From Abditibacteriaceae bacterium (GTDB taxonomy: Bacteria; Armatimonadota; Abditibacteriia; Abditibacteriales; Abditibacteriaceae), in NCBI GenBank assembly GCA_031372065.1, contig JANMKN010000214.1, forward strand, positions 1-32,076: a DNA stretch of 32,076 nt, written 5' to 3'. Both the position numbers and the translations under genes were made by a program. Below the pieces are notes generated by a model. That model had not been told where the DNA came from, made no database searches, and saw only the letters and a program-made list of their open reading frames with translations. This document shows positions 4,621 to 32,076 of this stretch, one piece after another (position 1 is the stretch's first letter; every line of letters begins with the position of its first letter).

Positions 4621-4672
4621 TCTGCACAGTATAACGGGGCAACAAGTCAAAAAATGACTGCACGAGGGGCAC

Positions 4673-4966
4673 AATGGCACCAATCAGGGCCAAAATGGAA
4701 GCAGTTGAAGACACACTGCAAGCAGTCAGGGCCACACTGGAGGCAATCAGAGGCAAATGGGAAGCAATTTGCCCCTCACTGGAAGCAAACGACCCTGAAA
4801 TGGAGACAATTGGAGCCAAACGGGGAGCAGTCAGGGCCAAACGGGGAGCAATCAGGGGCACACTGGAAGCAGTCAGGGGCACACTGGAAGCAGTCAGGGC
4901 CTCACTGGAAGCAGTCAGGCGTAGAATTATACCAGTCGGGCGCAGAATTATACCAGTCAGGCGCAG
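4673..4966. repeat. 14 x 21-bp degenerate tandem array between divergent genes
   Basis: Consensus ACTGGAAGCARTCAGGGCCAM, exact 21-nt register without indels, CAR at positions 9-11 in all 14 units. Confidence 0.92.
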
Positions 4967-5027
4967 CGATTGGCCGACGGATCACGCAAACACAGGGTCA
5001 CAGCTATGAAACGATAAACTGCGCGGG

Positions 5028-6889: not shown

Positions 6890-6972
6890 TTGGAGTTTTG
6901 CGTGAGGAGTTCTGAGCTAAAACGGATAATCCCGATCAACTTAAAACTCTTAACTCAAAACTCTCAACTCAA
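6890..6972. repeat. Inverted heptamer-repeat hairpin (GAGTT/AACTC family)
   Basis: Left arm tggagt-tttgcgt-gaggagt-tctgagc. Right arm aacttaa-aactctt-aactcaa-aactctc-aactcaa. Confidence 0.7.
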
Positions 6973-9900
6973 CCATTAACTGTCCACAACGTGTAGCTGC
7001 CTTCAAAACCACGCAAATCACAATTGCGATGGGCTGACCAGTCGAAGGCTTCAATATCCAGTTCGCCTTCTTTTGCTAACTGCTCGCGTGCGGCATTGGA
7101 AAGGCGCACTTCGGGGTCTTTGGTAGATTCCACTACGCGCGAGGTAAAGTTCACCATTGTGCCAAAGGCGTCCTCTTCTTCGATCAAAACCGGGCCAAAA
7201 TGGATGCCGGCGCGCACCAGCAGATTCTCGGCGCCGGGATTCTCGTGTATCGAAAGGCTGGCTGCCAACGCATCGGAAACGGTGCGAAAGGCCACCATAA
7301 GCGAGTCACCGATGGTTTTTATGACATAACCGCCCTGCTCTACCGTCACCTGACGGCCTTTCTTGTAATGCGCCCGCAGCACTTGATTAAAACTTTCGTT
7401 GCCGATCTGATTTGCCATCATGGTGGAACCCACAATATCGGTGAACACAATCGCTAAAGTGCTGCGCGAACCACCGGCCCAAGTGCGAAAACTCTGCATC
7501 CGAATTTCGCCGGCGGCGGACACCAATCCCGCTTCCAAATCACGCAGCGCATCAGCGGCGCGATCCATCTGCATGACGGCGGCGGGCTGCGTGGACTGCT
7601 GCACTCTTTCTTCGCGATCCGACATAGAAACTTTGGCGCTGCAAACGCTGCATTCAATGGTGTCGAATCCGCGTTCACGACGACGACGCACTTGCGTTTC
7701 GGTAAGCGGCGTGCCGCATTCTTGGCAAGCGAAAACGCGACGGCGCTCCAGCGTATTTGGCAACGAACGTTTTAGCAAATGCGAATAAATGAACTCCTCG
7801 AAGGCGAATCGCGTTTCCTCAGCAGTCGCATCATCGAAGAATAACGACAGTTCGGCCCGTCCTTCCTCCATTTCACGCATCAAAATCCCGCAGGAACCGC
7901 CACTGTTAGCTTGATAAGTCGCCGCGTTTTTCCACATATTTTTGCGCTCGAACTCACCGGAATGAGAAAGGCGCACGCAAAGCGTGGCATAAACGTGGGC
8001 AACGGGGCCTTCGAAGGTAAACACAACGGTAGTGCCGCTGGGATCGTGAACATCAGGATATTCGCGCGTGGATTGCGCAGGAAAGACCAGCAGCGAACCC
8101 TCTGGGCCTTGCTCACGCAGGGCTATTTCGTGGCGCAGCAAGTCTTCCACCATTGCGATGAGCAATAAGCGCTCTTGTTCCGCGTTGGGTAAGCGCTCAT
8201 CTTTCGACATCGGGAATTTGCCGTTATAAATCCAATCTTCGGGCATCGTTCCCATCCCAACCGGATCATTGCGAACAGCGTTTACCAAAGCCGAAGCGTA
8301 GGCATCAATTCGTTCGGGCTGAAGTAAAATCAAATTTCCGAAACTCAGGCGGCGAATCAAGCCCTGCGCTTCGACAAGGCCGATACACGTTTCAAATTGT
8401 TCGATTAAGTCGGGCGTTTGCATGGGGGCTTGCCCAGACCGCAAAAATGACATGAATAAGTCATCTTCCACGGTAAGCAAGCGCCCGCCCTGTTTTTCGA
8501 TAAGCAGAAAATCTTTGATGCGCTGGAAGAGATCAGTCGAAGAGACTTTGGGCAAGCTGTCCCAATCAATAGATTCCATGATGGCGCGCTTTAAATCGCC
8601 AACGCCCCAACCTTCGCGGGCGCTGGTTTCGAAATAACCATCGAAATCATGCTGTTGTAAAAACGCTTCGAGACGTTCGCGTGGCACGCCAACGTTGCCG
8701 CGATCCATGCGGGCTGCCACTAAAAACTTCTTCAAAGGCAGCGCATCCGGGCCAGCAGCGTTTTGCGCCTGACGCAAAGCGCGATCCCAATGGCGCACGC
8801 CGCTAAAGGGGTCGGTTTCGCTGCGAACGTCAAACACGACCAGCGCAATCGCCACTTCATTTAAGTGCAATTGATGAATTAAACGATAACCCGGCTGTCC
8901 TGCCAAATCCCACAACAGCGTTTCACGATTTTCGCGCCGCCCGTCTTCCAATTCCACCTGATCGCTAACAAAGCGCCACACGAAACGTCCATGCGTGGAT
9001 TCTGTGGGCGTAAAAGGATGACCAGTTAAAACCAGACCCAATCCCGTTTTGCCCGCGCCGCTGTCGCCGACCAGCACCACCTTAGCATTGGTGTAATGCA
9101 CCGTTTGCGTGCTGCCTGCCGAGGTGCGCAATTTTCCGACGTCCACATCGTAGATGTCAATATCACGATCTTCGTTGGCGATAACAGCCAAGGTGTGTTC
9201 CTGCGGCGCCCATGACACGCCAGCAGAAAATAAACTGGTCACACCGGTTTCAGCCAAACCGGGCAAAATCTGCCAAGTATCGGTGCGCCATAAACGTAAG
9301 GCGCCGCTCAAATTTCGGCCCGCCATTATCCGTCCACAATGCGAAAATGACACGCAAGTAATCGGCTCAATATCGCCTTGCAAAACGTGTTTGAGTTGGC
9401 CCGTATCCGGGTCCCAGAGGCGCACCATGCGATCCGAAGAGGAAGCAGCCAATACCTTATTGTTAGGTGACCACGCCAAAGACAACACAGCATCGTTGCC
9501 AGAAGTCAACGAACGCTGCATTCGTTCGCCAGCGGCATCCCAAATGCGAATCGAACCTTCGCTTGAGGCCGCCGCCATCATTTTCCCGTCGCGTGACCAA
9601 GCGACATCTAAGGCCTGACCGGATGGCATTCGCAACATCCGCGTCATGCGCGCGGTTTTGGCATCCCACAAACGCACGGTGTTATCCGCCGAGGCCGATG
9701 CGTAAAAATCGCCGTCGGGCGCCCACGCCACACGAAAAATCAAGCCTTTATGCTCACGGTAGGCTTGTAGTAGGCTGCCATTGGTATCCCAATGTTTAAT
9801 GCCGCCATTATCTTGTCCCGAAATCAAAATCTTGCCATCGGGCGACCATGCCAAACAGGAAACTCCAGCCTCTACCGAGCGCATCACATGAAGGGTGGTG

Positions 9901-10058
9901 CCTGTGCGCATATCCCAAGTGCGCACCGTCAGATCGCTACTACTTGATGCCAGATAACGACCATCCGCCGACCACGCGATTTGTGAAATCGCATCGGTAT
10001 GGCCGGTCAAAGTCCGGTGTAGTCGAAATCCCAGTGGTAGTTCTGTAGTAGCTGGCAT
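6969..10058 (-). CDS. Roco-family protein: 7x WD40 - Roc GTPase - COR - Zn ribbon - class III adenylate/guanylate cyclase
   Basis: Seven WD repeats. G1 GDSGAGKT, G2 ESTHG, G3 WDLAGQ, G4-like ARMD, G5 ETSA. CQEC..CSVC. Cyclase motifs FTDIVGST, KTIGDS, RAGIHFG and DAFGTMVNFTSR. Start at ATG 10058 or TTG 10073. Confidence 0.88.
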   Translation of the reverse strand: MPATTELPLGFRLHRTLTGHTDAISQIAWSADGRYLASSSSDLTVRTWDMRTGTTLHVMRSVEAGVSCLAWSPDGKILISGQDNGGIKHWDTNGSLLQAYREHKGLIFRVAWAPDGDFYASASADNTVRLWDAKTARMTRMLRMPSGQALDVAWSRDGKMMAAASSEGSIRIWDAAGERMQRSLTSGNDAVLSLAWSPNNKVLAASSSDRMVRLWDPDTGQLKHVLQGDIEPITCVSFSHCGRIMAGRNLSGALRLWRTDTWQILPGLAETGVTSLFSAGVSWAPQEHTLAVIANEDRDIDIYDVDVGKLRTSAGSTQTVHYTNAKVVLVGDSGAGKTGLGLVLTGHPFTPTESTHGRFVWRFVSDQVELEDGRRENRETLLWDLAGQPGYRLIHQLHLNEVAIALVVFDVRSETDPFSGVRHWDRALRQAQNAAGPDALPLKKFLVAARMDRGNVGVPRERLEAFLQQHDFDGYFETSAREGWGVGDLKRAIMESIDWDSLPKVSSTDLFQRIKDFLLIEKQGGRLLTVEDDLFMSFLRSGQAPMQTPDLIEQFETCIGLVEAQGLIRRLSFGNLILLQPERIDAYASALVNAVRNDPVGMGTMPEDWIYNGKFPMSKDERLPNAEQERLLLIAMVEDLLRHEIALREQGPEGSLLVFPAQSTREYPDVHDPSGTTVVFTFEGPVAHVYATLCVRLSHSGEFERKNMWKNAATYQANSGGSCGILMREMEEGRAELSLFFDDATAEETRFAFEEFIYSHLLKRSLPNTLERRRVFACQECGTPLTETQVRRRRERGFDTIECSVCSAKVSMSDREERVQQSTQPAAVMQMDRAADALRDLEAGLVSAAGEIRMQSFRTWAGGSRSTLAIVFTDIVGSTMMANQIGNESFNQVLRAHYKKGRQVTVEQGGYVIKTIGDSLMVAFRTVSDALAASLSIHENPGAENLLVRAGIHFGPVLIEEEDAFGTMVNFTSRVVESTKDPEVRLSNAAREQLAKEGELDIEAFDWSAHRNCDLRGFEGSYTLWTVNG

Positions 10059-10195
10059 GAGAATCAGAAGCAACAGATGTTCTTCTTACAGAGAACAATA
10101 TATCCCGTCCCCTTGTTTATTGCATCTTGAGAGAAAAACTACCAGCAAGGGACGTGCCATTTTGTTAAAAGTCCAAATTTCCAAAGGCACTATGC

Positions 10196-11908
10196 TTATG
10201 CAGATGGCAATGCTTGCGGCGGCGATTCATTGCGCAAGCGGGCTGGCACAAAATCTAAATCGCTGGCTTCGCGCATCGCCAAGCGAATTTGAAATTCCAA
10301 AACTTCGGCGGGCACCGGGTTTTGATAATCATCTAAGCAATCGGCCAAGGCTGTAACTGCGTCCAATTTTTCTACTTTGACTAACCGATAAACTTTTACG
10401 GCCAAGGCTTCTGCCGCGCCGGGCGTCAGCAGTAACGGCACTTGTGCAGCCATTTTTTCAAAAGCACCATCGGGAATTTCCAAGCCGCGCCGTTTGCACA
10501 ACGCTTGAATCAAATGAAAACTTTCTTCGCTCTCCATAGTGGGGAACAAAGGAATTTTGACATCCACGCGGCCCGGACGTTTGAGGTCAACTTCAATCAA
10601 ATCGGGGCGGCTTGAGGCTAAAACCCAAATTATCTTGCCGCGATTGCGCGAGTTGCTCATTTCTTCGGCCATCATTGAATAAATGCGGCCCGAAACGCCC
10701 GAATCACCCGAACCTGCATCGCGCTTGCCCAATGCTTGGTCAGCTTCGTCAATGAAAACGTAGCAGCGCCCCAGCGCCTGCAACAAACGAAAAATCTTTT
10801 CGAGATTGCCTTCGGTGGAGCCAACCCATTTGTCGCGAAAATTTTTCATTTTCACAACCGGCACGCCTGCCTCGCCTGCCAGACATTCAACCATGAACGT
10901 TTTGCCGGTTCCGACGGGGCCGCATAATAAATAGCCCATCGGCATGGCTTGCGTTTCGCCTTGTTTCCAGAGCGCAATGTCCTGTCGCAGCCAAAGTTTT
11001 ACTTTTTCCTGCCCGTAAAGATCATCCAGAGTGCGTTTTGATTCGACGAATTCAATCAAGCCATCGCATTCTTTTTCGATGAGTTGCTTTTTCAGTTGAA
11101 CCAAATCTCCATCGCCCAGCGGCTCGGCTTTGTGCTGCCGCGTTTTGAGCATGGTTTCGACAGAGCCAAGCGAAGCTCCCGCTAATTGCTGCGAGGGGAA
11201 TTGCAAATTCCCCGCATAATTTTGCAGCGCCTTGCCATAAAGTGGTGCCAAAACCGTGAGGCCACGTTGCAAATCATCCGGCGAAGGCAACGGGATTTTT
11301 ACCAATGCCGCGCGTGCATTATTGGCGAGCATCGGATGCAAATCGTTGAGGTTTTCCGCGATAAAAAACGTGGCGAGGCCATGTTCAATCAGTAAAGTGT
11401 CGCTGCTCCACTCGCGCATCAACAGCGCCAACGCGTTTAAGTCGTAATTAAGCGCGCCGGGCAAGGCTGGCGCGACCAAATGCGCGGCTTTGATAAAACA
11501 ACCGACCTGCGTTTTGGTGCGCCCCAAACGTCCTAAATTGGCGATGTAACGAAAATAATGCGTCAGAGTTTCGATGGCCGGACGCGGCATTCGTGGCAAC
11601 TGCGGATTGTCCCGATAAGCCGGCCATTGCTCGAAAAGTTGCCCACCTTTTTCGATGCGAATCCCGTTGCCTAAATCGTAAGAAAGAATTACATCGAAGC
11701 GCGTGAGCATGACACGCATGAGAAAATCGGGCAGCGAACCTAATTCGCCGCCCGTTCCCATTGGCAATAAAATGCGGTCATTCACATTGCCGTAAAGCAC
11801 AAACTGATTGGAGGCCGAACTGGCGTATAACGTGACCAATTCATTAGCCCAATCGGGTAACGCGCCTTGTGGCAAATTCAGCGAAGGCGGCACGGGAGGA
11901 GTGAGCAT
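10196..11908 (-). CDS. Classical-clade AAA+ ATPase with a degenerate N-terminal module and an active C-terminal module
   Basis: Walker A GPVGTGKT, pore loop KWVGSTE, Walker B VFIDEAD, SRH SSRPDLIEVDLKRPGRVD. The N-terminal ~290 aa lack a Walker A. Confidence 0.92.
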   Translation of the reverse strand: MLTPPVPPSLNLPQGALPDWANELVTLYASSASNQFVLYGNVNDRILLPMGTGGELGSLPDFLMRVMLTRFDVILSYDLGNGIRIEKGGQLFEQWPAYRDNPQLPRMPRPAIETLTHYFRYIANLGRLGRTKTQVGCFIKAAHLVAPALPGALNYDLNALALLMREWSSDTLLIEHGLATFFIAENLNDLHPMLANNARAALVKIPLPSPDDLQRGLTVLAPLYGKALQNYAGNLQFPSQQLAGASLGSVETMLKTRQHKAEPLGDGDLVQLKKQLIEKECDGLIEFVESKRTLDDLYGQEKVKLWLRQDIALWKQGETQAMPMGYLLCGPVGTGKTFMVECLAGEAGVPVVKMKNFRDKWVGSTEGNLEKIFRLLQALGRCYVFIDEADQALGKRDAGSGDSGVSGRIYSMMAEEMSNSRNRGKIIWVLASSRPDLIEVDLKRPGRVDVKIPLFPTMESEESFHLIQALCKRRGLEIPDGAFEKMAAQVPLLLTPGAAEALAVKVYRLVKVEKLDAVTALADCLDDYQNPVPAEVLEFQIRLAMREASDLDFVPARLRNESPPQALPSA

Positions 11909-11910
11909 TT

Positions 11911-11946
11911 TGAAAGTTAAGAGTTTTAAATTAGGAGTTTTGAGTT
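11911..11946. repeat. Heptamer repeat tract (single arm) abutting the 41-bp array
   Basis: tgaaagt-taagagt-tttaaat-taggagt-tttgagt, same family as 6890-6972. Confidence 0.65.
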
Positions 11947-11955
11947 AAAATCTGC

Positions 11956-12187
11956 TGATTTGTGCCAATCAGCACTAAACGAGACTCAAAAGCTATTGAT
12001 TGGTGCCAATCAGCACCAAACGAGACTCAAAAGCTATTGATTGGTGCCAATCAACACCAAACGAGGCTTAAAAGCACTTGATTGGCACAAATCAGGGCCA
12101 AACGAGACTTAAAAGTTGCTGATTTGCGCCAATCAGGTGCTTGCGAGCAGCAAAAAGCTGTTGATTGGCGCCAATCGGGAGCTTTTG
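11956..12187. repeat. 6 x 41-bp tandem array with a 16-bp palindromic core TGATTGGNNCCAATCA
   Basis: Cores start at 11956, 11997, 12038, 12079, 12120 and 12162 (periods 41, 41, 41, 41, 42). Linkers resemble each other (GCACCAAACGAGACTCAAAAGCTAT). Confidence 0.93.
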
Positions 12188-12213
12188 ATGCTAATCTTGC
12201 CTTGCTTCGCGAC

Positions 12214-12978
12214 TCAATTGATTTCTGAAACCGGCCCCAAGCCTTGCGTGCTTGAAGTGGGAGAATCGGAAGCGACGACGCCGGGCATCGGGCGCGGGTC
12301 AAGAGCAATACCGGCTTGCGCGGCGAAGTCGGCCAAGGCTTGATCGGCCAAGGCTGATTGCTCTTCTTCTTTCATTTCGAATTCATGCACGTTGAGGCTG
12401 TCTTTGGCAACGCGGGCGCGTCCAGCGGCTTTTTGGCGGTCTTCTTCGACCATTTCATGCAAGCGATTGAGCGTGTCGCCGCTACCGCCGATGCTGGTAA
12501 TCATGCCGGAGGCCATTTCGGTCATCTCGGCAGTGGCCTTTTTGATTTTTAGGTCATCAATCGAATATTTAAGGGCTTCGATTTTCGATTTGGCGGCATC
12601 AACGGTCACATCGCGCGCTTTGACGAGGTCTTTGTAGGTGTCTTCGGCCTGTTCGAGTTGTTTTTTGTTTTCCACCAGTTCGCTGCTGGTTTTTTGTAGG
12701 CGCAGCGCCAATTGACCGGCCATGTCGCGATTGCCCGCGCGCAAATGCGCCGTGGTTTTGGCTTTCAGATCGCGTTCTTCCACTTCCTGTTTTTTGACCT
12801 GCATCATTAAGCGCTCGCAAAGGGCCGCATGCGAAGCCAAACCCTGATTGTAACGGGCAATCTGGGCGCGCAGATTTTCTTTTTCCACTTCGAGCAGGGC
12901 TTCGGGATTTTGCCGCTCGGCATTTGAAATGAACAAACTCAAAAATCCCTTAATCAAATTCGACAAACGCTTAAACAT
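12214..12978 (-). CDS. pspA: PspA/IM30 (Vipp1, ESCRT-III superfamily) protein
   Basis: Amphipathic N-helix MFKRLSNLIKGFLSLF, E..NPEALLE, long coiled coil with AGNRDMA, helix TLNRLHEMVEE, C-terminal extension. RBS AAGGAGA. Confidence 0.88.
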   Translation of the reverse strand: MFKRLSNLIKGFLSLFISNAERQNPEALLEVEKENLRAQIARYNQGLASHAALCERLMMQVKKQEVEERDLKAKTTAHLRAGNRDMAGQLALRLQKTSSELVENKKQLEQAEDTYKDLVKARDVTVDAAKSKIEALKYSIDDLKIKKATAEMTEMASGMITSIGGSGDTLNRLHEMVEEDRQKAAGRARVAKDSLNVHEFEMKEEEQSALADQALADFAAQAGIALDPRPMPGVVASDSPTSSTQGLGPVSEIN

Positions 12979-12995
12979 GAAATCTCCTTTTACAA

Positions 12996-13099
12996 TGGTC
13001 AGTTGTCGGTGGTCAGTGGTCAGAAATTTCTAATGCCAATCACCCTACTGCTCACTGTCCACGGCTTACTGTCCACTGCTCACTGATGGCTGACTGCTG
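12996..13099. repeat. Inverted heptamer-repeat hairpin (TGGTCAG/CACTG family) overlapping the 3' end of the 280-aa gene
   Basis: tggtcag-ttgtcgg-tggtcag-tggtcag, then ctcactg-tccacgg-cttactg-tccactg-ctcactg. Confidence 0.7.
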
Positions 13100-13908
13100 T
13101 TTGCATATTTCGACGGGCCAACATCAAGACTGAAAAACTCCAACACATCGTCCAGTCGTTCGGCTTCTCCATCGCAAAACTTCGATAGTTCTTCCACGCG
13201 TTTCCGCGCGCTTTCGATGGCTTTGCGGCGCTCTTGAATTTGTGATTCCAACGTTGCAATGTCGGTTTCGACTTTCTTGGTGAATTCTTCGCTTTTCTGG
13301 CCGAACGATTCCAAATACGCTTCCAACGCGGCCAATTTCCGAGTCGCATCGCCCACAATGGTTTGCGGCGTGGCGCCTAAAGTTTTACCGATAGCGTTAA
13401 GCGTCGCTTTAACAGTTTGGCGACGAATTTCGAGTGGCAAATCGGCAGGCAGCGAGTTGATGATTTCCAGCGCTTGTTCCGCCGTAAAATTCGTGGCGGG
13501 CACCCCTGCTGCGTCATAAATCATCGGCAGATTGACTTTGCCGTCGGCGCCGATTACAGCCGTTTTTTCCATTTTTCCATTTTCCGCTTGGGCCGCGCCC
13601 GCCGCTGCGTTTTTGATTTCAGCCAAGTTCGGCCCCGGCCCGCTTTGCACGACTTGCGTGGCAGTGGCTGTTACTTTAGCCGTGCCGGAAGCGGTGCCGG
13701 ACGGCACGACGCCCGTAGCGGCACTCTTTTCGCTTTTCGGGCCACGAACAGCGGCCAACAACTCGTCAATATCCGGCGCGGGCCGCGTCGAATAATCGCT
13801 CGTATCCGGCGAAGTGCCACTTGATACGGGCACGTTCGGCATTTCGTCTTCAGGCGGCATTTCGAACAGTAATCCGGCAGTTTTGCGCATCACATTTCGC
13901 AGACTCAT
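13066..13908 (-). CDS. Hypothetical protein with a low-complexity N-half and a C-terminal coiled coil
   Basis: 280 aa. Pro/Ser/Thr/Ala-rich linker, then a helical domain and heptads (IATLESQIQERRKAIESARKRVEEL). Co-oriented with pspA. Confidence 0.85.
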   Translation of the reverse strand: MSLRNVMRKTAGLLFEMPPEDEMPNVPVSSGTSPDTSDYSTRPAPDIDELLAAVRGPKSEKSAATGVVPSGTASGTAKVTATATQVVQSGPGPNLAEIKNAAAGAAQAENGKMEKTAVIGADGKVNLPMIYDAAGVPATNFTAEQALEIINSLPADLPLEIRRQTVKATLNAIGKTLGATPQTIVGDATRKLAALEAYLESFGQKSEEFTKKVETDIATLESQIQERRKAIESARKRVEELSKFCDGEAERLDDVLEFFSLDVGPSKYANSSQPSVSSGQ

Positions 13909-13918
13909 ATCGTTTTAT

Positions 13919-13993
13919 TGGTCGGAAGTCAGTAGTTAGTGGTCAGAAATAATGAAATCGGTCTACTGACCGCTGACTACCGCCCACTGACCA
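13919..13993. repeat. Inverted heptamer-repeat hairpin (TGGTCAG/CTGACCA family)
   Basis: tggtcgg-aagtcag-tagttag-tggtcag, then ctactga-ccgctga-ctaccgc-ccactga-cca. Shares AGTGGTCAGAAAT with the 12996 element. Confidence 0.75.
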
Positions 13994-13997
13994 TCGC

Positions 13998-15023
13998 CTA
14001 ATTCATTAGTCTCGCCAACGATTGTTCGTAGGGCGCGATTTCCTCCAGCACTTGCGTCATGGTGTTGGTTTGAGTGACCACATCTTCTATGTCGGCCAAA
14101 ACCTGTTCGGGCGGGCGCGCGCGAATCTCGTCGGAGATCAAACCGAAAGTATCCTCTAACAATTCCAACTGATGATTGAGATTCTGCAAAATGCGGCCCA
14201 TTTTGCCGACGAATTCACGGCGGCGCTCCAACACTTCGCTGCGCTTTTCCAGAACTGCCAAGGTGCCAGCGTCTTTTTCATCCTTCAACAAAGTGCGTAG
14301 TTTGTCCAATTCGCTATCGTAGTGCTTTTGCACTTCGTCAACGGTATTCTGCACCCATTTTTCGGATTGTTCATAGCTTTGCACGACACTGGTTGGCTTT
14401 GATGGCCGAAGCGCGGCGCCATTTTGCGCCATCGCGCTACGACGACGTGACGGACTGCTGGAATTGATCTGCGTTTGCCCTTTGCGTTCAAAGGCATCGT
14501 CCAGCCACGCCGGACGCCCAGAGTCTTTTCCGGTAGGAACTTCACCGATTTCACCGCGCGCTTCGGCCAAAATTGAAGCCAAATAAGCGCGAAACTGGCC
14601 TTCTTTGGTGGCAAATTGCAGAAACTTGTCCAACAAGTAATCTAACTTGCGCAAAACTTCGAGAAACCACGTTCTCTCGCCCATCGAAAGCGTGCCAATT
14701 TGCCCTCGCACTTGTTCGAGGTGCAAAAAGCGCCGCTGCAAATCAGGGCGCAAGGTCGGCAAAATCTCTGCCTTCATCTGGTTGCGACGCGCTTCAATTT
14801 CTGCGTCATGGCGCCGCGCCAAACGCTGCGAATACCAACGCGAATCGGGGACAAAAATAAGATACGCCGCTTCCAGCACAAAAGCGGGCAAAAGCACGAG
14901 TGGGCTGACCAGCGCCGCCGCTACCGCGACAGCACCAGCCATGCCGATGATATTGTAATTTTCCTTAAACGCTTCAGCGTAACGATTGCGCGGTGTCATG
15001 AAAGCGACGGGCGTGTCTACCAA
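13998..15023 (-). CDS. Membrane-anchored coiled-coil protein
   Basis: N-terminal hydrophobic hairpin (IIGMAGAVAVAAALVSPLVLLPAFVLEAAYLIFV) followed by long helical heptads. The start may be ATG 14999. Confidence 0.85.
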   Translation of the reverse strand: MVDTPVAFMTPRNRYAEAFKENYNIIGMAGAVAVAAALVSPLVLLPAFVLEAAYLIFVPDSRWYSQRLARRHDAEIEARRNQMKAEILPTLRPDLQRRFLHLEQVRGQIGTLSMGERTWFLEVLRKLDYLLDKFLQFATKEGQFRAYLASILAEARGEIGEVPTGKDSGRPAWLDDAFERKGQTQINSSSPSRRRSAMAQNGAALRPSKPTSVVQSYEQSEKWVQNTVDEVQKHYDSELDKLRTLLKDEKDAGTLAVLEKRSEVLERRREFVGKMGRILQNLNHQLELLEDTFGLISDEIRARPPEQVLADIEDVVTQTNTMTQVLEEIAPYEQSLARLMN

Positions 15024-15118
15024 TCCAGTCCATCTTATTATATCTGGCCCGCGCCCTTTAATTATTCTAACCGTTCTATCCGGTTGTGTGCTTTAAATGC
15101 CACCTTAGATGATGTAAT

Positions 15119-16351
15119 TTAGCCGCCTATAATCGCAAGCCACTGGCTGTTGGCATTGTTGACGGCGCTGTAAGGCGGCAATTCGGCTGCCGCGAAATCG
15201 GTTTGGAAACCTTGCGCGTTTTGCGCCGACAGTTGGCTATTTAGCGACAACTTCGACGATGGACGGGCCGGACGAAAATTGTAGTTCACCCCATCACCCA
15301 GCGATTCGTCGCTGCCCAAAAATTGGATGAATTCCTGCCCGCCTTGTTTTTGCTCTGGCGTGACCCATGAACCACTCAATACCGCCACTGAATAATCGGA
15401 AACCATCGCCGGACGCGGATAAATTACTACTAAATTAGGATTGGAAGTCGCCGCGCCGAGCGCCAGATTTTCATAAGACGTTATCACGTCATAGCGTCCC
15501 GGATCGCGCACGAAGGCTTTGAATAAAGCCGAGGAACCATTACGCGCGTCGGCATCGAAAACCAAGCCTTTTTTAATATCGCGCAGAAAACTTTGAAAGC
15601 CGCTACTGACGGCCAATTTTTCAAAACTCTGATTCATGCCGGTTTGCTGTCCGTAAGCATAAAGCATTGAGCCAAGTGTCAAAAAACCGCTGTTGGCTTT
15701 GAGCGGATCAGCCGTGGAAAAGCGAAATTTGCCCCACGGCGCTTTGGTTTGGCCGCTACACAAAGCGCGCATGGCGCCCCACGGATTCGCGCCGCCCAAA
15801 AGTGGCTTCAAAAAGGCCGCTTTGTTTTTTGTGGTAACAAAAACAATCGGGCTGCGAAAATACACGCGAAAAGCGTTGCCGTCGTCCATGTTTATCAATC
15901 GCTTGCCTTTTTTCGACTGCCAGACTTCATCCACACGCGAGGCAAAAGCACTCGAACTGGGCGCATAGAGAATTGGCTGCTTGGCGCCGCTGATAATGGC
16001 GTGCATCGCTTCTCGTGACTCTTCGGTTGTAATCGTCACTTCATAGCGCCCGGCATTTTTGGCGTTGAATTTTGTGATTTCATCTTGTAGCCAGCCGCCT
16101 TTTGACGGACTGGTCAAAAGCAAAAGCTGCGTGCCGCCATTGCCAGAATTGGTGCTGGCATTGCTTCCCGAATTATCGCCGGAATTACTTTTAGAATTGC
16201 CGTTGGAATTACCAGAGTTGCCATTGGCTTTCCCCGGCAATGAAGGCAGCTTAAAACCGCCTGCGCCTTTGCCAATCATACGCCATGCGCCGATGCCAAA
16301 GCCGATGACCAAAAGAAACAAAACAACTTTGCCGGGACCTGTTAATTTCAT
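15119..16351 (-). CDS. Membrane-anchored extracellular solute-binding (PBP type 2) protein of the kind often linked to vWA domains
   Basis: N-terminal TM, Gly/Asn/Ser linker, then QPILYAPSSS, SPIVF, TADPLKANSG, YENLAL, VIYP and FIQFL. Confidence 0.8.
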   Translation of the reverse strand: MKLTGPGKVVLFLLVIGFGIGAWRMIGKGAGGFKLPSLPGKANGNSGNSNGNSKSNSGDNSGSNASTNSGNGGTQLLLLTSPSKGGWLQDEITKFNAKNAGRYEVTITTEESREAMHAIISGAKQPILYAPSSSAFASRVDEVWQSKKGKRLINMDDGNAFRVYFRSPIVFVTTKNKAAFLKPLLGGANPWGAMRALCSGQTKAPWGKFRFSTADPLKANSGFLTLGSMLYAYGQQTGMNQSFEKLAVSSGFQSFLRDIKKGLVFDADARNGSSALFKAFVRDPGRYDVITSYENLALGAATSNPNLVVIYPRPAMVSDYSVAVLSGSWVTPEQKQGGQEFIQFLGSDESLGDGVNYNFRPARPSSKLSLNSQLSAQNAQGFQTDFAAAELPPYSAVNNANSQWLAIIGG

Positions 16352-16416: not shown

Positions 16417-17709
16417 TTAACGCGCACTTGCACAAAGCGCGTCCAAACGCGCGAAAAAATCGGGAAATGTCTTCGCCACGCAACCCGGATCGAGGATTTC
16501 CACGCCCGGCGTCACCAAACCTGTAATCGCAAAACTCATCGCTATGCGGTGGTCTTCGTAAGTCTCGATTTGCGCCGCGCGCAATTGACTTCGCGGATGA
16601 ATCGTCAGGCTGTCCTCGCCTTCTTCGACTTGCACGCCCAAACGCCGCAATTCGCTGACAATGGCGTGAATGCGATCCGTTTCCTTGTGGCGGATGTGGC
16701 CGATATTGCGAATTGTAGTTGGCGAATCAGCAAACGGTGCGATAGCCGCCAAAGTCATCACCGTATCGGAAATGGCGTTCATATCCACATCTACGCCGCG
16801 CAATTGCTGTGGGCCGCGCACTTCGATGTAATCGTCGCCTTTTTCAACAGCGCAACCCATTTTCTCTAATACATCTACGAACGCGGCGTCGCCTTGCAAC
16901 GCTTCTTTGCCGATGCCCAAAACGCGCACACGCCCGCCCGTTACGGCGGCAGCGGCCCAAAAATAACTGGCGCCTGAGGCATCCGGTTCGATGTTGTAAT
17001 TTTGCGCGCGATATTTTTGCCCGCCGCGAATCGAAAAGTGCCGCAGATTTTCATGCGACACTTCAATGCCCCACTGTTGCATCATGCGCAGCGTGATTTC
17101 GATATACGGCTGCGAAAACAATTCGCCTTCGATTTCGATTTCAACATCGTTTGCGCAAAGCGGCGCAACCATAAGCAAAGCGCTCAACGGTTGACTGCTT
17201 TTGGCGGCCCGCATCACAACTTGGCCGCCTTTTAAGCCATTGGCGCGCACTGTGATTGGCAAGCAGTCAGTGCCATTATCGTCGCGCGCGTCGGCGCCCA
17301 TTTGTTGCAAAGCCGAAAGCAAATCGCCAATAGGACGCTCGCGCATTCGCGGCACACCATCAATGTGAAAAGTGCCCTGTCCCAGCGCCAAAAGCGCCGT
17401 CAAAAAGCGCGCGCTGGTGCCCGAATTGCCGACGAAAAGTTCGGCTTCGCTGGAGGGGAGAATGCCGCCTTGCCCTTGCACTTCAAACAATTCTTCTTCG
17501 GCATCAGCGCGCACCGAAATTCCCAAATGGCGCAGCGATTCGCCCATGTAATGCGTATCGTCCGAAAACAAGGCGCCTTCCAAACGCGAAGGGCCATCGG
17601 CCAAAGCCGCCAACAAAAGCGCGCGATTGGTGATGCTTTTCGAGCCGGGCACGCGCACAAGGCCCTCGATAGGCCGCAATACGGGTTTTATGAGAAGCGA
17701 ATCGGTCAT
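16417..17709 (-). CDS. aroA: 3-phosphoshikimate 1-carboxyvinyltransferase (EPSP synthase)
   Basis: VPGSKSITNRALLLAALA, GNSGTSARFL, RMRERPI, SSQ, RHKETDRI, DHRIAMSF, KTFP. Confidence 0.97.
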   Translation of the reverse strand: MTDSLLIKPVLRPIEGLVRVPGSKSITNRALLLAALADGPSRLEGALFSDDTHYMGESLRHLGISVRADAEEELFEVQGQGGILPSSEAELFVGNSGTSARFLTALLALGQGTFHIDGVPRMRERPIGDLLSALQQMGADARDDNGTDCLPITVRANGLKGGQVVMRAAKSSQPLSALLMVAPLCANDVEIEIEGELFSQPYIEITLRMMQQWGIEVSHENLRHFSIRGGQKYRAQNYNIEPDASGASYFWAAAAVTGGRVRVLGIGKEALQGDAAFVDVLEKMGCAVEKGDDYIEVRGPQQLRGVDVDMNAISDTVMTLAAIAPFADSPTTIRNIGHIRHKETDRIHAIVSELRRLGVQVEEGEDSLTIHPRSQLRAAQIETYEDHRIAMSFAITGLVTPGVEILDPGCVAKTFPDFFARLDALCASAR

Positions 17710-18563
17710 GAATATCTTTTTTCGCTCAGTTCTTTCAAAAGTTGTTTTTGTTCGTCGGCATGATGACGCACAACGGCTTCGAGGTCGTCCACACGTTGCA
17801 ACAACAGGCCGATTTCCACTTCGGCTTTGGTGTTGATTTGGTGGTCAATTTCCGCCGCAATGCGGTCTTTGGCGACTTCCTGATTCTGGCTGATTAAGAC
17901 AAAAATTGATAGCAGCGAGGCTTCCAAGCCGGTTATTAAAGCCAAAATATCATGCGGCGACGGGTCGAATGGCGTGCCGGGAAACCACGGCTGATTCAGC
18001 AAAAGCCAAAAGCAAAATAAAATCGTGTGCGCCACTAAAAACGGCATACTGCCTGCGATGCCGGCCACTTTATTGGCGAGTTTCAAGCCTGCGGTTTGCC
18101 GCTCGTCGTCCATCTCGTTGACGTTGCGGCTGACCGCCTGACGGAGCAGCGAATCGGTGCGATGTAAGCGGTGCCCCAGTTCCATCAAAACCGTAATGGC
18201 CGCTTGCGGATGGCGTTCTAAGAATTCAAGAAAGTCCTCGCGGTGCAAAGTCAGCGCTTGCACGCTTTCGGTGGCTTGCACACGCGCCGAACGCGGCTCG
18301 CCCGTGAGCATCGAAAGTTCGCCGAAAAACCCACCCGCGCCCGCTTCGCCGACGACAAGTTCATTGCCGTCGCTGCCATGCACAGCAATTTTGGCGCGTC
18401 CTTCCAACACCACGAAAAAATCGTTGCCCGGTTCGCCTTCCCGAATGATAACGGTGCCGGGCGCAAAACTAACCGGCGTCATCATGCGCAGCACATCGCG
18501 CAAATCGTCATCGCTCATGTGCGCAAAGAGCGGCACTTGCCGCAACGCAGTTAAATCTTCCAT
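17706..18563 (-). CDS. Cyclic nucleotide-binding domain plus DUF1003 membrane domain protein
   Basis: Phosphate-binding cassette FFGELSMLTGEPRSARV. DUF1003-like GSMPF..FDPSP..LEASLLSIFVLISQN. ATGA overlap with aroA. Confidence 0.9.
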   Translation of the reverse strand: MEDLTALRQVPLFAHMSDDDLRDVLRMMTPVSFAPGTVIIREGEPGNDFFVVLEGRAKIAVHGSDGNELVVGEAGAGGFFGELSMLTGEPRSARVQATESVQALTLHREDFLEFLERHPQAAITVLMELGHRLHRTDSLLRQAVSRNVNEMDDERQTAGLKLANKVAGIAGSMPFLVAHTILFCFWLLLNQPWFPGTPFDPSPHDILALITGLEASLLSIFVLISQNQEVAKDRIAAEIDHQINTKAEVEIGLLLQRVDDLEAVVRHHADEQKQLLKELSEKRYS

Positions 18564-21838: not shown

Positions 21839-24800
21839 TTACCCCGAACCGTCATCGTTGGTAATCGTGCCGATACCGCGCGCCTTGCTTACCGAGGCGT
21901 TGACCACGCCAGACAGCAACACGAAGAACGTCTCATTGGGTTCGGCGAGAACATCACCTTTCACCTCGACAGTTATCTTTTGACTCGTAATGTGGTTAGG
22001 ACCACCAAAATTCAGCGAGCCACCTTTCAAGGTGTAGTCACTGGTGGACTTGGCCGTGCCATCCGCTGTGGCGTATAAAACGGAGATCGCTTTTTCGCTG
22101 GCACCCACTAAAGTCACAGTGAAAATGAAATTAGTGAAGCCGGAGCCGCCTTCCTGCTTACTCACATCGTCAATGATCAATGATGGCGACGTATCGTCGT
22201 CCAGAATGGTGCCTGTTCCCGTATTGCTGCCTGCGGTAATTGTGGCGTTTTCGGGTGACGATATCTTCGCCACGAATGTCTCGTTTTCCTCATCCAGCGT
22301 GTCGCCATTGATCGTTACATGGGCAATACCGACCGTCGTTCCGGCGCTGATGGAAACAACTACAGGCGCCGCAGATGTAACCGGAACGTAGTCCACGTTG
22401 GCCGCTGCCGGAAACACACCGGTGCCGGCGGGGCTGTTCGCGGTGGTGAGGGCAACCTTGACGACTTTGCCGCTGGCGGCGGAAAGCGTGACGTGGAACG
22501 TTGCTGAAAGTTGGCCGCCATTACCTTCCTTGGTAATCGGACTATCAATGGACACCGTGGGAGGCGCATCGTCATCGGTGATCGTAGCTTGGACACGCGA
22601 TGTGCTGATTTTGCCATTGACGGGCGTCGTCAAAAAAACGAAGAGATTCTCATCGAATTCGTCGGTGGAATCCGTGCTTATCGGAACGCTGAATTGCGAG
22701 GACGACTGGCCCACGAGAATAACCAGATTCTGCCGTGTCGCTGTATAGTCACCCGGCGCTTTGGCGGTGCCGTCCGTAGTGTTCCATGTGACAGTGACCG
22801 GTCGGCCACTCACGAGGGAAGCGCCTACCGCGTCCACCAAATTGACCTTGAAGTTGGCAAACTTGACGCCTCCCGTGCCTTCACTCACGGTAACGTCACC
22901 CGTCGAGATAATCGGCAGCGCGTCGTTATCAATGATGGTGCCAACACCTTTGGCCACAGTGATTTCGGCAACGGTGGGCACACTGAGATTGACGAAAAAG
23001 GTTTCATCGTCTTCGTCCAAGTTATCGCCTTTGATGGGCACAATTATGATGCCTTTAGTTTGATTGGCTGGGATTGTCAAAGTGCCGGATGTGGCGACAT
23101 AGTCCTTGCCTGCCTCGGCTTTACCCATCGCAGCGTTGGTGTCCGCCGTAGCGTATTTGACCGTCACGTCTTGCGGTACCGTATCGGACAACGTCACGGT
23201 GAAATTCAAAGTCTTGTTGGCATCACCCAAATTGCCTTCGAGAATGCTGGGGCTGTTAATGGACAGTTTGGTTTTGTCGTCGTTGGTGATGGTGCCCTTT
23301 GCCTGCAAAGTGGGCTGCAAATTGTTCAGCGTGGCATTGGTCGGATTACTCAACGTGACCCGGAAAGTTTCGTCCGCTTCGTAATTCGTATCGCCGAAGA
23401 TAGGCACAAAAATTTTGCCGTTGTCTTGTCCGGCAGGAATGACCAGCTTACCCGGCGAGACACTATCCGAATCGAAAGCAGTGCCGTAATCGTTGCCCAC
23501 CGTGGCAGTAGTGCCGGTGATGTCATCGGAGACTGCGTAATCCACCGTCACGGTCTTGCTGCTTGTCGCTGGCAGTTTGACAATGATTTCCATGATGGTG
23601 GTGCCCGCGTTGCCTTCTACGAGGGATACGGGATCCATGAAAAGCAACGGCGACGCATTCAGAGTGATGTCGGTGCTAGGGGTGTAAACCTGATTCAGCA
23701 CAATATTCGTCTTCGGCGAATTCACTACATCGAAACCGGCTGCAACGCTGGCGCCGGATTGCGCTTGGACAATCTTGAAGTTTTGGTTGGCGGTCGGCGC
23801 AAATCCGTTTATGTAACTCGCATTCAAGGTGCCGCCCATTTGTAAGGTCGAGGGGAAATTGGAAAGCGCCACGATACGGTCGAATTGAGTGCCGCCAGTC
23901 GTGCCGCCGATTTCCATGTTAATAGCGCCACCAGTATTGAACAGGTTGCTGGTGCCAGTATTGATGTTGAGAGTGCCAGCTTTTCCCACGCCGCCGACGT
24001 TCAGCGTGCCTTGGTTGATAAGAACGCTGGTCATACTCGTCGTGCCAGCGAAGGTGTTGAATATGCCTTTGTTGGTGAACTGACCCTCAATCGCATCGCC
24101 CGCCGCATTAATGTTGTAGTTGCCACCATCATTGATAAGTGGATCAACGAGCGTTTTTAGCGGAGCGCCGCCGTTCCAGTTCATGGTGCCTTTATTCGTC
24201 CACACTTGGTTGTCGTGGAAAAACTTGCTTCCGGAGCCACTCATGTTCACTGTTAGTCCGGCATCAAAGGTAAGGGCACCGCTGTAAAAATCACTATTCA
24301 GCCAATTCACGGTGCGCGCACCAAAGGGATCGGTGACAATCAATTTAGCGGCATTACATTGCACATTGGGAATGACATTGTCCGCTGCATCGCCCAGTTG
24401 CAGCGTGCCGTTCACTGTGATGTTGCCATTCAAGAACATTTGCGCTGCATCGCATTCAAATGTGCCGGCGCCGGAGATGACAGTTCCGGCGTTCAATTCG
24501 GAGATGTTGCCGCCCTTGATGGCCATGATTCCCGTATCGGTTTTCAAAACTCCCGTATTCATGTTTTTCAGCAGACCCAGATTAACTGTTCCGCTGCCCA
24601 GTGTTTTTTGGATAAGCCCATAGTTGATGACGATGCCCCCAACGCCAGCATCTTGGAACGTGCCATTCCTTGGCAAAACAATGGTGCCGATGTTTGTGAT
24701 GTCGGCATAGAGGTAACCGGGGCCATTCCATGTGAACTTGCCCTGATTGGTAATCCCCGAAACGGCACGGAGGAACTGGCCAGAGGAACCTATCGCAAAT

Positions 24801-25270
24801 GCTTGACAATTCGGGCCGAGGGTGAGGGAAGGAGCAAAGGCAATGGTAAATTGGTTGTTTGAGATGGCACCGCCCTGCCAATTAAAACTATTGGTGACCG
24901 TTACACCCAAATTGGCGGAGACTGCACCCAAGAGGCTGCCATTTTCCAAGGTCAAACTGTTGAGCGTGATGTTTTCGGCCAGTGCCGCTGACTGGTCTGC
25001 CGCGATGGTAACATCGGCCCCGTCGATGGGATAGGATCCGATAGGGCCATTCAGGGCGCAAGCGTCATCGGGCGTATGGGCCCAGTTACGGGCATCTTTC
25101 CAACTGGGATCACCTGGACCTTGGAGAACACAAGCTCCGGTGTTGATATCCGTCGCATAGCCGGAGTAATTGTGAAATGTCCACGCACTCGCGGCACTGT
25201 TGAAGGCCATGACGGCCATCAGGAGAAACGGCAGGGGGTTGGCGCGCAGCCAACGGTGGAAACGGAACAT
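21839..25270 (-). CDS. Secreted surface protein with a beta-strand-repeat passenger-like region and five Calx-beta domains
   Basis: Signal peptide from ATG 25270 (RBS GAGG). Gly/Asn/Thr-rich repeats. Five EG..V.Y.T.DGTA..DY..E.F.V.L..GTI.NDD-type units. Confidence 0.9.
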   Translation of the reverse strand: MFRFHRWLRANPLPFLLMAVMAFNSAASAWTFHNYSGYATDINTGACVLQGPGDPSWKDARNWAHTPDDACALNGPIGSYPIDGADVTIAADQSAALAENITLNSLTLENGSLLGAVSANLGVTVTNSFNWQGGAISNNQFTIAFAPSLTLGPNCQAFAIGSSGQFLRAVSGITNQGKFTWNGPGYLYADITNIGTIVLPRNGTFQDAGVGGIVINYGLIQKTLGSGTVNLGLLKNMNTGVLKTDTGIMAIKGGNISELNAGTVISGAGTFECDAAQMFLNGNITVNGTLQLGDAADNVIPNVQCNAAKLIVTDPFGARTVNWLNSDFYSGALTFDAGLTVNMSGSGSKFFHDNQVWTNKGTMNWNGGAPLKTLVDPLINDGGNYNINAAGDAIEGQFTNKGIFNTFAGTTSMTSVLINQGTLNVGGVGKAGTLNINTGTSNLFNTGGAINMEIGGTTGGTQFDRIVALSNFPSTLQMGGTLNASYINGFAPTANQNFKIVQAQSGASVAAGFDVVNSPKTNIVLNQVYTPSTDITLNASPLLFMDPVSLVEGNAGTTIMEIIVKLPATSSKTVTVDYAVSDDITGTTATVGNDYGTAFDSDSVSPGKLVIPAGQDNGKIFVPIFGDTNYEADETFRVTLSNPTNATLNNLQPTLQAKGTITNDDKTKLSINSPSILEGNLGDANKTLNFTVTLSDTVPQDVTVKYATADTNAAMGKAEAGKDYVATSGTLTIPANQTKGIIIVPIKGDNLDEDDETFFVNLSVPTVAEITVAKGVGTIIDNDALPIISTGDVTVSEGTGGVKFANFKVNLVDAVGASLVSGRPVTVTWNTTDGTAKAPGDYTATRQNLVILVGQSSSQFSVPISTDSTDEFDENLFVFLTTPVNGKISTSRVQATITDDDAPPTVSIDSPITKEGNGGQLSATFHVTLSAASGKVVKVALTTANSPAGTGVFPAAANVDYVPVTSAAPVVVSISAGTTVGIAHVTINGDTLDEENETFVAKISSPENATITAGSNTGTGTILDDDTSPSLIIDDVSKQEGGSGFTNFIFTVTLVGASEKAISVLYATADGTAKSTSDYTLKGGSLNFGGPNHITSQKITVEVKGDVLAEPNETFFVLLSGVVNASVSKARGIGTITNDDGSG

Positions 25271-25346
25271 GCGAGTCCTCTTTTTACGGCAGATTTTGTC
25301 AGGGCCCTGAAAAGCAATGGACGAATGCAAGGGCAGTTGTCGGGGG

Positions 25347-25663
25347 ATCTAGGAAGAGAACGCCATCGATATGATCGATTTCGTGCTGCACGACTACGGC
25401 CTCGAAATCTTCGGCGTCCAATTCGTGCCATGATCCCCATTCGTCCTGATAGCGCACGACGACGCGCATCGCGCGGCGCACGTTGGCCGTGAAATCTGGC
25501 AGCGACAGGCAGCCTTCTTGGCTGGGCTTGAGAGTCTTGAAAAACTTGTCGTAGGCTTCCACGCTTGATTTCGTGGTATCCGAAGAAGCCACCCTAACAT
25601 CGCGTGCCGTAAGACGGGCACCCTCCACATAGGGAATATGGAGTTCAATTTTAACGTCGACAT
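25347..25663 (-). pseudogene. Chimeric remnant: 5' end of an astacin/Calx-beta paralog fused to the C-terminal half of a peptide deformylase
   Basis: AGGAGA RBS and ATG 25663, then a frameshift to DTTKSSVEAYDKFFKTLKPSQ (25580-25518), then EGCLS..QHEIDHIDGVLF (25517-25347). Deformylase motif 1 (GxGxAAxQ) is absent. Confidence 0.8.
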
Positions 25664-25755
25664 GGAATTCTCCTGTCACCGAAGATTATGAAATTCTCTT
25701 ATAAGGGAATTTCAATAAAAATGGTTTACCTTATCTTTTCCATAAAAATCATCAC

Positions 25756-25788
25756 GTTTCAGAACTATTTCAGTCACATTTCAGTCAC
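25756..25788. promoter_or_regulatory. 11-bp direct repeats, possible OmpR/PhoB-type regulator site
   Basis: GTTTCAGAACT-ATTTCAGTCAC-ATTTCAGTCAC, about 95 bp upstream of ATG 25663. Confidence 0.4.
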
Positions 25789-25900
25789 GTCTGAGTAAAA
25801 TTCCAGTTTATTATGAGCTGTCTGATTGGCGTGTCTGTTGGGCTGTCACAGGAGAACCTAATCTCTATAATTTAATCTCTGGGTCATGTTTGTCGAATGA

Positions 25901-25947
25901 AACAAAAAGGCAGGGACGATTTACGAATCGTCCCTGCCTTTTTTGTT
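25901..25947 (-). terminator. Rho-independent terminator after the astacin/Calx-beta gene
   Basis: AAAAAGGCAGGGACGATT-tacg-AATCGTCCCTGCCTTTTTT. Confidence 0.88.
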
Positions 25948-25970
25948 GAGCTACAATTTGCTACACGCTT

Positions 25971-31871: not shown

Positions 31872-32076
31872 CGTGAGCTTCTCCAAAAACAAAATTAATG
31901 CGCCATTGAAGCCAAAAACAACGGCAATAAGGCCGCACCACAATGATTATACAATTTGCAGCCTTTATATCATGTCAACTTCATGACAAAAACCAATTTT
32001 TAAAAGAATTTTGCGAAAAATAAGGGCAGAATTTATTCTTGGGGGTATTAAACCCCAAAAGAATAAAATAGCCATC

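Follow-up and report, generated by a model that had tools for sequence, protein, structure and literature searches.

A WD40-Roc-COR protein carrying a predicted adenylyl cyclase, a candidate nucleotide-gated sensor from an Abditibacteriaceae bacterium

Here, we analysed a 32,076-nucleotide stretch of DNA from an Abditibacteriaceae bacterium (contig JANMKN010000214.1 of assembly GCA_031372065.1; the window) and found that one of its genes, at 6969..10058 on the minus strand, encodes a protein of 1029 aa in the order WD40 propeller, Roc GTPase, COR, Zn ribbon, helix and class IIIc nucleotidyl cyclase. This WD40-Roc-COR-cyclase gene is real and intact. Tentatively, and at somewhat below even likelihood, we prefer the reading that its product may work as a single-gene alarm or counter-invader sensor resembling the nucleotide-binding leucine-rich-repeat receptors (NLRs), one that would stay silent as a GTP-bound monomer and make cyclic AMP (cAMP) on dimerisation. 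The behaviour of its family, with swappable effectors, a patchy spread and conflict-type neighbours beside the siblings that carry a TIR domain, is of the immune type.

The open frame begins with an ATG at 10058, and an alternative in-frame TTG at 10073 would add 5 residues; the close orthologs at loci L001 and L096 are likewise 1029 aa long and start at ATG. A full-length AlphaFold2 model, computed with 111 homologs in the alignment, had a pLDDT (predicted local distance difference test) of 88.5 and showed, after the propeller and Roc, first a helical and then a sheet region, followed by a small ribbon, by a helix (residues 825-852) and by the cyclase. An earlier note, made from the sequence alone, had described a seven-bladed WD40 propeller and a full Roc motif set, and we recovered both. 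The propeller (9144..10031, residues ~10-305; all parts of the gene lie on the minus strand) matched the WD40 repeats of Pfam PF00400 with an E value of 6.5e-47, its model has 28 strands in residues 11-305, that is, seven blades, and it superposed on seven-bladed WD40 structures with a template-modelling score of 0.95. It is the predicted sensor, in the place that leucine-rich repeats (LRRs) hold in other prokaryotic Rocos. After a short helix (residues 307-316) comes the Roc domain (8568..9104, residues 319-497), where Pfam Ras (E 2.9e-16) and Roc (E 7.5e-14) matched residues 326-496. The motifs stand where the note had placed them: G1 GDSGAGKT at 331-338, G2 T355, G3 DLAGQ at 384-388, G5 SAR at 479-481, and G4 in the variant form ARxD at 449-452, the canonical form being NKxD. 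A449, R450 and D452 are invariant in the 111 aligned proteins, as are the G3 and G4 Asp (111/111), and the G1 Lys is kept in 110, with a gap in the remaining one. Mean column identity in this alignment was highest for Roc (0.755), followed by the cyclase (0.657), and lowest for the WD40 region (0.51). The switch is thus a Ras-like NTPase, and no STAND ATPase domain was found.

The same note had pointed to a middle region of COR length, and its modelling as COR was the check that we applied to residues 495-860; the claim was not refuted. No Pfam COR-A or COR-B match appeared in these residues even at E<=5, and a Roc-COR profile compared with the sequences of solved structures returned only Rab-type GTPases in the best 60 of 369 matches. 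Therefore, the COR call rests on fold and on profile-profile comparison. The model of residues 495-860 had a pLDDT of 92.3, and in a Foldseek search with it CtRoco (the Roco protein of Chlorobium tepidum; structures 3dpt, 3dpu, 6hlu and 8r4b), LRRK1 and LRRK2 filled every listed row down to rank 33, with 3dpt as the best match (E 8.2e-10) at identities of 8-13%, about 10% in COR. A second aligner, run against 48,161 chains, placed CtRoco 3dpu first (Z 17.0, root-mean-square deviation 4.4, 287 aligned), the best non-Roco structure reaching Z 10.8. Moreover, a profile comparison with the Pfam-labelled Roc-COR protein of locus L058 extended through COR-A with a probability of 96% and an E value of 2.5e-9, and an Atlas search gave COR-A/COR-B clusters as first matches at 0.85, which we take as a lead only. 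By this modelled fold, the protein belongs to the true Rocos, and its COR, though divergent, divides into a helical COR-A (8067..8564, residues ~499-664, from fold search and profile alignment) and a COR-B core (7749..8045, residues ~672-770, from model and fold search). Modelled as a homodimer, residues 495-860 scored 0.07 against a mark of 0.42, which gave no answer on dimerisation.

Next to the COR-B core lies the four-Cys Zn ribbon (7599..7748, residues ~771-820), delimited by Cys conservation and alignment ranges. Its cysteines C778, C781, C803 and C806 are kept in 111, 107, 111 and 110 of 111 proteins, respectively. The four cysteines of the CxxC..CxxC ribbon named in the earlier note are therefore present; rather than forming a domain of its own, the ribbon is probably the C-terminal part of COR-B. 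In the alignment with nucleotide-free CtRoco (3dpu), positions 7-324 of our model cover CtRoco 427-940 and end at about residues 818-820 of the protein, whereas in that with the GTP-bound monomer (8r4b) positions 1-279 cover CtRoco 613-891 only and end at residue 773. According to Galicia et al. (PMC11052575; here and below, papers cited by PMC number or DOI are drawn on in excerpt), CtRoco 892-940 takes part in dimerisation and is disordered in the GTP monomer. Since the alignment ranges place the ribbon at CtRoco 892-940, it likely stands in for the COR-B dimerisation element, a modelled correspondence taken from range end-points only. The ribbon is followed by a loop of variable length (28-35 residues from C803 to A835) and by the linker helix (7473..7586, residues ~825-862), a predicted signalling helix of fixed length: the distance from A835 to D874 is 39 residues in 102 of the 103 cyclase proteins of alignment A1, and the expected A835 spacing was found in 28 of the 30 cyclase forms at genome loci. 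TIR forms share the first part of the helix and have a 22-residue spacing after A835 in 43 of 47 cases, one with an exact 7-residue deletion. This fixed length suggests a mechanical coupling of switch and effector through the linker helix. The modelled position of the ribbon at the CtRoco dimerisation element and the fixed length of the helix that leads into the cyclase are new in this analysis.

The C-terminal domain (6972..7472, residues 863-1029) is a class IIIc nucleotidyl cyclase, predicted to be an adenylyl cyclase; Pfam PF00211 matched it with an E value of 1.3e-16, with the class III fold at about 867-1026. All six residues claimed for it earlier were found, namely two metal-binding Asp (D874 and D918), the substrate-specifying K914 and D963, and the transition-state pair N970 and R974. 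Among 103 cyclase-bearing homologs they are kept in 102 (D874), 103 (D918), 97 (K914), 97 (D963), 97 (N970) and 103 (R974), and R/K1016 is likewise kept. The nearest solved structures are mycobacterial adenylyl cyclases, Ma1120 being the best (E 1.8e-15), and K914 and D963 fit the adenine pattern and align with those of Ma1120. The dimerisation arm, G955-D963, has 7 residues; an arm of this length is the mark of class IIIc, and class III cyclases are active only as dimers (PMC4626032). Judged from these residues, the product is most likely cAMP. In a tree of 30 rows the Roco-fused cyclases formed one group against 15 other host cyclases (support 97/94), consistent with one source for the fusion. 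A relative of the same genus (genome G001) carries a second, divergent WD40-Roc-COR-cyclase (L100:4550-7801, plus strand), a paralog with a Glu at the adenine-specifying Lys position, which could alter the product or abolish activity.

The domains might also be uncoupled, with a cyclase that is constitutive, inactive or specific for another cyclic nucleotide, or with an ARxD Roc that is a mere scaffold. The non-canonical G4 and the Glu of the paralog would suit such a protein, as would matches to the PycC models of Pycsar (best E 8.9e-7). However, Roc is the most conserved region and keeps its G1 Lys and its G3 and G4 Asp, K914 and D963 follow the adenine pattern, and the weak PycC matches reach the N-terminal part of the cyclase domain only. 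We consider uncoupling very unlikely. The pyrimidine-specifying residues quoted in PMC11224242 differ from the pattern in this cyclase. Membership in Pycsar was rejected on the partial, weak PycC matches, the adenine-type K914 and D963, and the lack of an adjacent gene for an effector that binds cyclic nucleoside monophosphates (cNMPs).

How the switch might act on the cyclase is suggested by CtRoco, which dimerises in the nucleotide-free state, is monomeric with GTP and stands in equilibrium with GDP (PMC11052575); prokaryotic Rocos bind GDP with micromolar affinity and release it fast (PMC6337361). Going by this behaviour of CtRoco, the cyclase is likely to be active in the GDP-bound or empty dimer and inactive in the presence of GTP. 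The earlier idea of a GTPase-gated cyclase in one chain is supported in its anatomy and in general outline, and the gating is likely the inverse, since GTP dissociates the CtRoco dimer. An active site arises in class III cyclases only where two cyclase domains meet. While GTP is at its normal level, as we infer from CtRoco, most of the protein would be GTP-bound and monomeric and its cyclase silent. The GDP-bound or empty dimer would then be favoured by a drop in GTP or by a ligand, probably a protein derived from an invader, that binds the propeller; the COR-B/Zn-ribbon elements would pair, and the fixed-length helices would bring the two short-armed cyclases into register, so that cAMP would rise and ATP would fall. 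Given that no receptor gene travels with the cyclase, the output may be a cAMP burst read by general cNMP receptors of the host or a drain of ATP, in parallel to a presumed loss of NAD through the TIR siblings. A default-off sensor would suit both effectors because TIR NADases also need self-association. The more specific proposal of an inverse G-switch, in which a GTP-silenced Roco would make cAMP on GTP hydrolysis or on a fall of the GTP pool and serve as an alarm for GTP depletion or invaders, with an ATP-draining effector that needs no receptor and is interchangeable with TIR, is in our view rather doubtful.

The polarity might also be the opposite, with a standing dimer, or an empty dimer that holds the cyclases apart, in which GTP turns the linker helix and switches the cyclase on, as for the LRRK2 kinase. 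If the dimer is permanent, a linker of fixed length would be well suited to passing on a rotation, and a change of orientation within the dimer is a frequent mode of regulation in class III cyclases (PMC4626032). For both CtRoco and LRRK2, the GTP-bound form has been described as active (PMC11052575). Still, GTP parts CtRoco and disorders the very element that the Zn ribbon would replace, and an enzyme switched on by GTP would, unless held back by the propeller, already be active in any growing cell. We therefore regard a GTP-on cyclase as unlikely.

The immune-type reading draws on the family. With residues 310-1029 as the query, 1742 of 8000 candidates matched, single-domain matches perhaps included; most of the cyclase is covered in 110 of the best 120 homologs (query included), a number that the choice of query biases. 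We also turned to genome loci gathered by a scan with the COR region, one genome per species, and used the best 80 of at least 261 stretches. Among these 80, 47 end in TIR, 22 in a cyclase and three in a cyclase then TIR, two have an N-terminal TIR together with the cyclase, and six have neither, so both effectors occur in one chain at 5 loci. Of these six, two have the cyclase in a different frame, two run off the contig end, and in two a frameshift precedes the effector. A catalytic-type Glu motif was found by a simple pattern in 39 of the 47 TIR domains, and the TIR in the effector slot is probably of the NAD-cleaving type. The more distant relative L101 ends in DUF4365. In a Roc-COR tree (85 rows, quick LG+G4, long-branch warnings, L079 left out) the cyclase/TIR label changes nine times, at least three of the changes being forced by strong branches, and we claim no direction.

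Members among the best 80 come from Cyanobacteria, Acidobacteria, Chloroflexi, Planctomycetes, Verrucomicrobia, Actinobacteria, Proteobacteria, methanogens and others; the closest, 87% identical, is labelled Abditibacteriaceae, and the methanogen copies are nested among bacterial ones on the Roc-COR tree. Within the host phylum, 5 of 151 genomes had a match at E<=1e-40, and among 41 chosen relatives, own genome included, 8 matched at E<=0.001, 7 of them strongly. The family is patchy and horizontally spread. On plasmids we found three matches, all cyanobacterial and none covering the cyclase. Carriage by phages was rejected, as the 45 matches in IMG/VR (21-33% identity) are all essentially limited to the GTPase domain. 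The host genome has two more Roc-like matches in long open frames (C334:15397-15795 and C69:6363-6854), which are probably other Rocos.

We also scanned the neighbours of the family genes. Beside TIR forms, a divergent NACHT gene recurred at 10 loci and a nucleoside deoxyribosyltransferase-like gene at 5, and extra TIR genes were also present; the 10 NACHT loci are not independent because they come from related cyanobacteria. Of 156 picked neighbours at TIR loci, 135 were scanned (near-duplicate loci, three long proteins and six others left out), and PADLOC models matched 15 of these at E<=1e-10, including five generic kinases or ABC ATPases, a count taken without a background. At L013:3541-10487 and related cyanobacterial loci we observed a recurrent cassette, a candidate multi-gene defence system, made of the divergent NACHT gene, the WD40-Roco-TIR gene, a gene of 169 aa without a Pfam family and the nucleoside 2-deoxyribosyltransferase-like gene. 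Separately, in Entotheonella (L046:6822-12025, plus strand), a WD40-Roco-TIR continues into a fused AAA_21 ATPase, with a PtuB-like gene behind it, so that the Roco is grafted onto a Septu-like pair.

Cyclase forms are mostly stand-alone genes. Transposase, integrase, Schlafen, GIY-YIG, a canonical Roc-COR-TIR gene and a second WD40-Roco-TIR gene each stand beside single cyclase loci. In two of these, family members follow one another: at L044:6426-12809 the cyclase form precedes a divergent WD40-Roco-TIR in tandem, and at L058:1-6017 it precedes the canonical Roc-COR protein, which has a ThsB-like TIR.

Several observations weigh against an alarm or counter-invader role. The polarity would be carried over from one distant homolog that is about 10% identical in COR. 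No family member was seen in the IMG/VR search. For the cyclase forms we scanned 112 of 130 mechanically called neighbours, from 27 other loci; PADLOC models matched 10 of the 112 at E<=1e-8, about four of them defence-specific (raw counts without background), and a cNMP-binding domain was found in none at E<=1e-12, a threshold at which weaker ones could be missed. In the window, the gene adjoins an AAA ATPase gene and an N-methyl/DUF1559 gene, housekeeping-type genes (aroA, the gene of a CCA-adding enzyme and a trmFO-like gene) lie nearby, and its synteny is kept in all three other genomes of the genus, so that the local genomic context gives no direct support for a defence role of this copy. 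The ratio of nonsynonymous to synonymous substitution rates (dN/dS; three orthologs, dS near saturation) averaged 0.03-0.25 over the regions, and the WD40 region, at 0.09-0.12, evolves no faster than the cyclase, at 0.08-0.14; by these estimates the propeller is under purifying selection in the genus. Its repeats are only 21-48% alike. Finally, ordinary cAMP signalling is available to the host, whose genome has 19 matches to cyclase domains and 6 to cNMP-binding domains.

Much of this would also fit a domesticated machine, that is, a Roc-gated adenylyl cyclase without an anti-invader role in this lineage, which feeds a cellular cue into the general cAMP network, the cue being the GTP:GDP ratio or a protein or metabolite of the host bound by the propeller. 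The stable synteny in the genus, the purifying selection on the propeller, the few defence neighbours and missing cognate receptor gene, the richness of the host in class III cyclases and cNMP receptors, and a cNMP-binding/DUF1003 gene 7.6 kb away are all in its favour. Against it stand the joining of cyclase and TIR in one chain at 5 of 80 loci, the swap of effectors along the tree, the very patchy spread across phyla and into archaea, and the nearby cNMP-binding gene, which has no counterpart among the 112 neighbours elsewhere. We judge domestication somewhat unlikely, and continue to prefer, in tentative form, the NLR-like sensor.

That gene lies at 17706-18563 on the minus strand and encodes a cNMP-binding and DUF1003 protein, a possible local cAMP receptor, which is also found nearby in G002 and G003; the comparison with the other cyclase loci turned up nothing like it. 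Directly upstream, at 10196-16351 on the minus strand, is a run of five genes, for a solute-binding protein, for products of 341 aa and 280 aa without a clear family, for PspA/IM30 and for a CDC48-like AAA ATPase; the pairing of PspA and AAA recalls that of ESCRT-III and Vps4. A functional link of the cyclase gene to these genes was considered and rejected: they are syntenic in the genus, but no such neighbour cluster occurs at other loci. In G002 the gene is frameshifted, and the genes adjacent to it are frameshifted too, which suggests a sequencing error; a pseudogene there was accordingly rejected. A promoter and terminator scan between the AAA gene and the Roco-cyclase gene gave nothing useful, and an RNA holder search listed none. 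Between the PspA and AAA genes, a 41-bp unit that contains a palindrome is repeated about 4.7 times (11945-12136), as a small array or an element like the repetitive extragenic palindromes. At 4665-4966, between the CCA-enzyme gene and the gene at 5028, there are about 12 degenerate copies of a 21-bp unit and a second short 21-bp repeat, which overlap a repeat open reading frame of 111 aa (4674-5009, plus strand). Two large Calx-beta repeat proteins are encoded at 21839-31943 on the minus strand, the larger of which (1990 aa) has an astacin-type peptidase domain.

Whether Roc-COR signals as a monomer or a dimer is debated for LRRK2, and the function of prokaryotic Rocos is unknown (PMC6337361, PMC11052575). 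A natural Roco joined to an enzyme that acts only as a dimer would make this question measurable by a cAMP read-out, and if the inverse switch held true, the strictly dimer-dependent output enzyme would give a direct enzymatic read-out of the signalling Roc-COR state. Moreover, the NLR-like immune prediction made for Roc-COR could be tested on matched siblings that share one chassis and carry either TIR or cyclase. The significance is bounded by an activity that is predicted and by a parent class that has already been catalogued.

That parent class was described by Kaur, Iyer, Burroughs and Aravind in 2021 (PMC8195603) as LRR-AP-GTPase-COR proteins with at least 24 effectors, predicted, and so far only predicted, to be counter-invader systems. 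Our protein resembles the class in having a repeat sensor, a Roc-COR switch and a variable C-terminal effector from conflict systems, and differs from its main-text definition, as excerpted, in carrying a WD40 propeller in place of the N-terminal LRR. As for the rapidly evolving sensor repeats of that class, the WD40 region varies most across the family here, yet within the genus it does not outpace the cyclase. The excerpted supplement lists propeller forms with TIR, Zn ribbon or calcineurin, without COR, and two entries that join AP-GTPase-COR to ACYC (LRR-Roc-COR-cyclase forms); term searches of supplementary file 6 gave 42 'propeller+AP' and 10 'ACYC' places, none of which combines a propeller-GTPase with a cyclase. 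A 2019 review (PMC6337361) described all prokaryotic Rocos then known as LRR-Roc-COR. In mainly open literature we found no paper on a WD40-Roc-COR-cyclase protein or on an anti-phage test of any Roco, and the excerpts of PMC7159879, PMC4316618, PMC13069673, 10.64898/2025.12.03.692087 and 10.64898/2026.10.19.760177 do not describe this architecture. The protein does not stand alone: it is one effector variant of a large family in which TIR fills the C-terminal slot more often. Within the literature searched, the propeller-plus-cyclase form appears to be new, and its parent class and sister architectures are already catalogued in PMC8195603.

Compared with CtRoco, LRRK1 and LRRK2, the protein shares the Roc-COR tandem, the same COR fold and a repeat domain before Roc. 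It departs from CtRoco in having WD40 rather than LRR, a COR of about 10% identity and a four-Cys ribbon at the COR-B end, and its cyclase occupies the place where LRRK2 has the kinase. With the class IIIc cyclases Ma1120, LipJ/Rv1900c and Rv1264 it has in common the six canonical residues and the 7-residue arm; unlike them, it is predicted to be regulated by Roc-COR, and the Roco-fused cyclases group apart. The class III cyclase fold is also used in the anti-phage signalling of Pycsar (PMC11224242), in which PycC is paired with a cNMP-activated effector, whereas our protein has adenine-type residues, no adjacent cNMP-binding effector and a large sensor-switch module. Finally, like the STAND and NLR-like sensors (NACHT, Avs), it combines a repeat sensor, an NTPase switch and a swappable effector that needs oligomerisation, with the differences that its switch is a Ras-like GTPase plus COR instead of a STAND ATPase and that the order of the domains is reversed.

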